A stretch of 30,137 nucleotides of DNA from Escherichia coli (GTDB taxonomy: Bacteria; Pseudomonadota; Gammaproteobacteria; Enterobacterales; Enterobacteriaceae), in assembly GCF_003334355.1 (NCBI RefSeq), contig NZ_QOWP01000040.1. One strand, written 5' to 3'. The translations under genes and the position numbers were made by a program. The notes beneath the pieces were generated by a model that saw nothing but the letters and a program-made list of their open reading frames with translations, did not search any database and had not been told where the DNA came from. Below, in pieces: positions 7,773 through 7,958 of this stretch (position 1 is the first letter of the stretch; the number at the start of each line of letters is the position of its first letter).

Positions 7773-7872
7773 AAGTTATCCTTACAATGTGTTTATCGCT
7801 TGCTAAGCATCGAGTGCGACGGAAATGCCAGAATAGCACTCTCCTGCATACACGCACCGATAGCCACTTTTT

Positions 7873-7907
7873 TTCGCCCCCCAAATGTAGACCAGACGGG
7901 GGGCGAA
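7873..7907. other. GC-rich hairpin (10-bp stem TTCGCCCCCC / GGGGGGCGAA, 15-nt loop) in the yjaG-hupA intergenic region
   Basis: Read directly; lies between the yjaG stop (7959) and the hupA start (7772). Not flanked by a U-tract in the minus-strand sense. Confidence 0.4.
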
Positions 7908-7958
7908 AGGGAAGACTCCAGGTACGACAAATCAGGCGTTAAATCACGTTTTCTGGTC

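Follow-up and report, generated by a model that had tools for sequence, protein, structure and literature searches.

An inverted repeat between yjaG and hupA of Escherichia coli very probably represents the core of the known sigma-70 promoter hupAp1

The yjaG-hupA intergenic region and its inverted repeat

The DNA analysed in this study, referred to as the window, is a stretch of 30,137 nucleotides from the Escherichia coli chromosome. It is reversed relative to MG1655, and window positions (w) convert to MG1655 positions (m) by m = 4208053 - w. A sequence-only reading of the window had noticed a GC-rich hairpin between yjaG and hupA. A 301-bp piece around this repeat was found at an identity of at least 99% in 5407 of 5426 complete genomes, where the annotations are yjaG and hupA, and it occupied a median of 1 place per genome. 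The features of the region are as follows, in window positions.

7959..8549, minus strand: yjaG CDS (DUF416), stop at 7959-7961
7908..7913, minus strand: hupAp1 -35 hexamer TTCCCT, 3/6 to consensus, from the sequence and the published -35 box
7898..7908, minus strand: repeat 5' arm TTTCGCCCCCC, the last base of the hupAp1 -35 hexamer and the first 10 nt of the spacer
7890..7907, minus strand: hupAp1 spacer TTCGCCCCCCGTCTGGTC, 18 nt, C-rich, near-invariant from the G onward
7884..7889, minus strand: hupAp1 -10 hexamer TACATT (A at -11, T at -7), with C at -13 ahead of it
7883..7897, minus strand: repeat 'loop' GTCTGGTCTACATTT, 15 nt, the remaining spacer, the -10 hexamer and position -6
7878..7883, minus strand: hupAp1 discriminator TGGGGG, G at -5 invariant, -4 to -2 different between genera
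7872..7882, minus strand: repeat 3' arm GGGGGGCGAAA, discriminator from -5 to -1, +1 start site and bases +2 to +6
7877, minus strand: hupAp1 start site (G), final G in the G6 run, base 6 of the 3' arm, MG1655 4200176 (PMC2760140)
7868..7874, minus strand: A7 tract, +4 to +10 of hupA mRNA (the T-run of the plus strand)
7773..7877, minus strand: hupA 5' UTR, 105 nt
7500..7772, minus strand: hupA CDS (HU-alpha), ATG at 7772

On the plus strand, TTTCGCCCCCC at 7872-7882 is 100% complementary to GGGGGGCGAAA at 7898-7908, and 15 nt lie between the arms. The repeat begins 51 nt past the stop codon of yjaG (7959-7961), and its end lies 100 nt ahead of the hupA ATG (7772). The hairpin between the yjaG stop and the hupA start is real, and its position was correctly given. 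It had been described as a 10-bp G/C stem with A/T extensions; the repeat and its 15-nt loop exist, but the stem is 11 bp long, with 8 G/C and 3 A/T pairs, and the T7 run (7868-7874, plus strand) is faced by just three A.

The predicted RNA fold of the repeat reached -24.4 kcal/mol on the minus strand (z -3.3; 0 of 200 shuffles as good) and -25.6 kcal/mol on the plus strand, and the DNA fold of the minus strand reached -14.0 kcal/mol (z -4.9). The exact repeat pattern occurred in 1 copy in the window and in none of 100 shuffles. A looser chance test counted any perfect 11-bp inverted repeat with a loop of 3-20 nt in Markov-simulated 30-kb windows. In this test, 0.155 repeats were expected per 30-kb Markov sequence. 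The repeat is uncommon yet not extraordinary, because about 10% of the simulated windows hold a similar one. A dispersed palindromic repeat of the REP/BIME or ERIC type was ruled out, as the repeat is single copy in the window and has a median of 1 place per genome.

The published hupA start and the anatomy of hupAp1

Table 1 of Mendoza-Vargas 2009 (PMC2760140) gives the known hupA p1 start as -105 relative to the ATG, with reference to Kohno 1990 and Claret 1996, and directed 5' RACE in that study arrived at the same position, -105. The same table lists galE p1 at -26 and ompF at -110. In this study, we took the hupA start from the literature, in which S1, primer-extension and RACE mapping may be 1-2 nt off; any start position within the G-run leads to the same conclusion. 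The leader lengths of galE p1 and ompF show that the number in this table is to be read as a leader length.

The boxes of hupAp1 are given as GTCTTCCCT for -35 and TCTACATTTG for -10 in the supplement of Mendoza-Vargas 2009 (PMC2760140). We found that TACATT (7889-7884) ends exactly 7 nt ahead of the published start at 7877, and that TTCCCT precedes it at a spacer of 18 nt, within the 16-18 nt expected between the -35 and -10 elements of sigma-70 promoters. The published -105 start and both boxes fall in the repeat. The repeat and hupAp1 (Kohno 1990; Claret and Rouviere-Yaniv 1996; RegulonDB-derived tables, Mendoza-Vargas 2009) occupy the same locus and do not differ in function. The feature is already known, since it consists of the same bases as the published hupA promoter. 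The complementarity between spacer and discriminator was not mentioned in the hupAp1 literature that we examined. A simple promoter scan of E. coli from 7300 to 8700 found no promoter, because the -35 hexamer matches only 3/6 of the consensus.

The initial transcribed sequence of hupA is GCGAAAAAAAG, and the bases past the +1 G are CGAAAAAAAGTGG. The hupA mRNA starts GCGAAAAAAAGUGG; the 5' arm and the loop are absent from it, and only 6 nt of the 3' arm, GCGAAA, are retained. With its start at 7877, within the 3' arm, hupA mRNA cannot form the hairpin, and its first 10 nt are predicted to be unpaired. The hupA-5' RNA of Stein 2020 comprises 110 nt including the AUG, which fits a 5' UTR of 105 nt. 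The sequence-only reading had drawn its line for the hupA start at 7873, with a start below that position speaking against a role of the hairpin; the published start stops 4 nt short of this line, and hupA mRNA is nevertheless unable to form the hairpin.

The leader itself showed several further features. The A7 run right past the start is kept in nearly all relatives; it may cause transcript slippage, affect the stability of the 5' end or serve as a protein site. The 5' UTR (7773-7877) is almost invariant among the 59 distinct Enterobacteriaceae sequences described below, and its conservation exceeds that of the yjaG CDS. The only known partner of the leader is the sRNA RaiZ, which targets the hupA ribosome-binding region with ProQ in Salmonella. 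An extended -10-like box is present on the minus strand (TGCTATTCT at 7838-7830, GCTATTCT at 7830-7837), and a minor hupA 5' end was reported at -52 (window 7824) with three 454 reads, as were others at -45 and -4 (Mendoza-Vargas 2009). We rejected TGCTATTCT as the main hupA promoter, as its A is Escherichia-specific, most genera have TTTTCT and the main start in the literature is -105. The TATTCT box may be a lineage-specific secondary promoter or may belong to a set of processing sites. The 5' UTR also contains TGGCAT-N5-TCGCA (7815-7830, minus strand), whose GG/GC spacing is like that of a sigma-54 -24/-12 promoter. This motif is conserved across Enterobacteriaceae with few substitutions, in the flanking T and the N5. 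The sigma-54-dependent zraP and zraSR are neighbours of hupA, and a literature search for a link between sigma-54 and hupA found none. In Dickeya fangzhongdai (L082, about 1917-2041), the one variable spot of the leader carries an insertion of about 125 nt. It is a dispersed repeat, of which E. coli genomes have a median of 7 copies each. This insert is presumably an ERIC/IRU element.

Conservation among Enterobacteriaceae

A YjaG scan with one genome per species yielded 80 Enterobacteriaceae loci, 78 of which also had hupA. These 78 loci, MG1655 and the window were aligned, giving 80 sequences, 59 of them distinct, with an intergenic length between yjaG and hupA of 185-187 nt. The 'loop' GTCTGGTCTACATTT, including TACATT, was invariant in all 59 distinct intergenic sequences, and the stretch from -1 to about +45 was invariant or close to it. 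The G-run differed at -4 to -2 (GGAGGG, GGGAGG, GGAAGG, GTGGGG, GGTAGG), with the facing C-run constant as CCCCCC. Likewise, the flank TTTCG changed to TTCCG, ATCTG, ATTAG and others, with the opposite CGAAA fixed.

When the E. coli stem was placed on the alignment, none of its 11 pairs showed a change on both sides, and the proportion of paired cells was 79.2%, against 79.5% when the partners were shuffled. Over the 80 sequences, E. coli had the strongest predicted hairpin, at -24.4 kcal/mol, and the weakest was at -7.6 kcal/mol. An intact CCCCCC/GGGGGG was found in only 32 of the 80 sequences; Salmonella, Klebsiella and Kluyvera had uncompensated G-run mismatches, and perfect symmetry was confined to Escherichia and a few others. 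Conservation in Enterobacteriaceae, which the sequence-only reading had proposed to check, holds for the 'loop' but not for the stem, which is uncompensated.

The promoter elements behaved differently from the stem. The -35 hexamer was TTCACA (5/6) in Kluyvera, Erwinia, Pantoea, Dickeya and others, and the promoter scan of Kluyvera independently called TTCACA-18-TACATT at the orthologous site. Erwinia, Pantoea and Dickeya retained the same promoter core. These results indicate that conservation tracks the promoter elements and not the pairing of the stem. The pattern fits a promoter logic, in which the -10 hexamer, the G at -5 and positions -1 to +3 do not change, -4 to -2 are free and the -35 hexamer drifts.

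The 18-nt spacer of hupAp1 (7890-7907), including the C6 run, was almost invariant across Enterobacteriaceae. It is conserved beyond what a spacer needs, likely because of an overlapping regulator site or a structural requirement. Some extra constraint must act on it, and the candidates are an overlapping regulator site, a structural property of the DNA and the complementarity itself.

Two further elements lie upstream of the repeat on the minus strand. The sequence AAAACGTGA (7944-7952), just past the yjaG stop, is near-invariant, and Erwinia, Pantoea and Dickeya share it. Its bases look like one half of a CRP site (cGTGA), the other half being a poor match, and its centre is at about -63.5 relative to the hupA start; it may correspond to the CRP site of Claret 1996. 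Within the last codons of yjaG, TGGTATAAT (7972-7980) is a perfect extended -10 motif. The yjaG codons at this place, GGT for Gly and the rare ATA for Ile, are kept in nearly all of the 78 loci (GGT ATA AAT or ATT), which suggests selection at the nucleotide level. A predicted Fis site, TATTGGTATAATTTTTCAGCAATA, was reported on the bases of TGGTATAAT, and no start was listed there (Mendoza-Vargas 2009). A start at TGGTATAAT, if real, would produce a transcript that contains the entire hairpin.

Transcript ends, alternative readings and known systems

We examined whether the repeat could act at the end of a transcript. The bases 3' of the stem are A-rich on the minus strand (AAAAGUGGC / AAAAGUGGCU), without a U-tract, and those past the stem on the plus strand (GGGAAGAC) also contain no U-tract. 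In the supplementary Term-seq tables of Adams 2021, no 3' end was listed in any condition within MG1655 4200000-4200199. The same data contain weak 3' ends at 4200251 and 4200253 (window 7802 and 7800, inside the hupA leader) and another at 4200389, as well as the strong end of the hupA terminator at 4200605 (window 7448). A search of the Ettwiller 2016 and Kim 2012 supplements for start or 3'-end entries at this place gave no match. A terminator scan of 7300-8700 left the hairpin unflagged and called only the hupA terminator, with none between yjaG and hupA. This intrinsic terminator (7451-7472) has a 9-bp stem and a T-tract, and its 3' end at 7448 is the strongest Term-seq end of the locus. 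It sits within the annotated yjaH reading frame (start 7487), and therefore yjaH expression must rely on read-through or on a start of its own.

Like Rho-independent terminators, the repeat has a G/C-rich perfect stem downstream of a stop codon. In contrast to them, it has a 15-nt loop instead of one of 3-8 nt, lacks a U-tract on both strands and shows neither a mapped 3' end nor a compensated stem. A terminator was ruled out by the missing U-tract and 3' end, in agreement with the earlier statement that the hairpin is not a canonical yjaG terminator. We also rejected a structured cis-regulatory RNA in the hupA 5' UTR, on account of the start inside the 3' arm, the lack of compensation and the absence of an Rfam match; at a permissive threshold, the sole Rfam hit was noise (mir-4716, with 16 bits where the gathering score is 76, E 5.4). 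The suggested role of the hairpin in processing or stabilising RNA at the 5' end of hupA is not supported, given this position of the start and the lack of covariation.

The hairpin could still function as RNA in longer transcripts, arising either from yjaG read-through or from a start at TGGTATAAT in the yjaG 3' end. It might then stabilise the 3' end, mark the point where exonuclease trimming halts once Rho has terminated transcription, or shield hupAp1 as a barrier against upstream transcription. Such a role is consistent with the strong predicted stem (-24.4 kcal/mol) at 51 nt past the yjaG stop and with the perfect extended -10-like motif and its conserved rare codons upstream. Moreover, read-through RNA must cross the hairpin, because the stretch from yjaG to hupA contains no predicted intrinsic terminator. 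However, Term-seq detected the hupA terminator strongly and no end in 4200000-4200199, 5' RACE and 454 data contained no 5' end upstream of -105 (Mendoza-Vargas 2009), a U-tract is missing, and the stem is weakened in most genera with zero compensatory changes. We regard this role as unlikely.

The repeat might also act as DNA. Under negative supercoiling, a cruciform or a hairpin in the opened strand could hide the -10 box and offer HU a target for autoregulation. The predicted DNA hairpin (-14 kcal/mol, z -4.9) is in line with this model, as is the conserved C-run of the spacer. HU prefers cruciform and junction DNA, and autogenous control was reportedly observed by Kohno in 1990, both of which count for the model. 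Activation of hupA by DNA relaxation has been reported as well (review, PMC8301835). If true, the model would explain this activation together with the over-conserved spacer, and the HU-alpha gene would gain a built-in supercoiling sensor and an autoregulatory site. However, for an 11-bp stem, a centre of 15 nt renders extrusion unfavourable in both energy and kinetics, and the symmetry is missing in Salmonella, Klebsiella and Kluyvera, although HU and its regulation are common to all. A cruciform is thus highly improbable here. The same slight probability applies to a palindromic operator overlapping the promoter, in which each arm would be one half-site for a dimeric regulator. The perfect repeat covers -35 to +6, where repressors typically bind, the conservation of the spacer is unusual, and responses of hupA to CRP, Fis and RstA have been reported. 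On the other hand, the arms neither co-vary nor stay symmetric across genera, the 26 bp between their centres are atypical for a dimer operator, the best-conserved bases are those of the asymmetric 'loop', matching the -10 box, and no known motif was recognised. The operator was rejected on the asymmetry of the arms across genera and the distance of 26 bp between their centres. The earlier suggestion of a protein binding site holds only trivially, for RNA polymerase holoenzyme at a known promoter.

These comparisons leave the promoter reading as the preferred one: the inverted repeat is very probably the core of the known sigma-70 promoter hupAp1 and not a separate element. Points against this reading are the poor -35 hexamer of E. 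coli (3/6), on which the promoter scan was silent, the conservation of the spacer with its C6 run beyond that expected for a spacer, and the 79% of stem cells that pair across genera. According to the mechanism that we propose, sigma-70 holoenzyme would recognise the stretch as duplex DNA and initiate at 7877. The arms are complementary because the C6 run of the spacer stands opposite the G6 run that spans the discriminator and start site, and TTTCG and CGAAA at their flanks contribute 5 further pairs in Escherichia. An RNA hairpin would be possible solely in read-through transcripts from yjaG. The complementarity of the C-run and the G-run appears incidental and functionless, with its maximum in Escherichia and an uncompensated erosion in other genera.

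The promoter reading also places hupAp1 beside known promoter classes. Like promoters with a G+C-rich discriminator, such as the stringent or supercoiling-sensitive rrn P1 and fis, hupAp1 has a G-run between -10 and +1, and hupA is likewise responsive to growth phase and supercoiling. The discriminator is contacted by sigma region 1.2, and on this basis the invariant G at -5 and the G-rich discriminator probably aid the formation of open complexes and offset the weak -35 hexamer. Contact of sigma region 1.2 with a G at -5 is said to have been described by Haugen in 2006. The rrn P1 promoters have C at -5 and form short-lived complexes, whereas hupAp1 has the favourable base G. The G-rich discriminator may also set the response to supercoiling or growth phase; a literature search for hupA together with ppGpp, DksA or discriminator found nothing relevant. 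An inverted repeat inside a promoter is also found in the early promoters of phage N4, used by the N4 virion RNA polymerase. The N4 promoters have stems of 5-7 bp and loops of 3 nt and are recognised as extruded hairpins by the phage polymerase. Unlike them, hupAp1 has standard sigma-70 boxes that would be read as duplex DNA, and its stem is not conserved.

These results suggest that a statistically strong hairpin can arise from promoter composition alone, when a C-rich spacer meets a G-rich discriminator. The conservation of the 'loop' instead of the stem is the giveaway of its promoter origin. The near-invariance of the spacer hints at an unmapped regulator site or a constraint on DNA structure at the gene of a major nucleoid protein.
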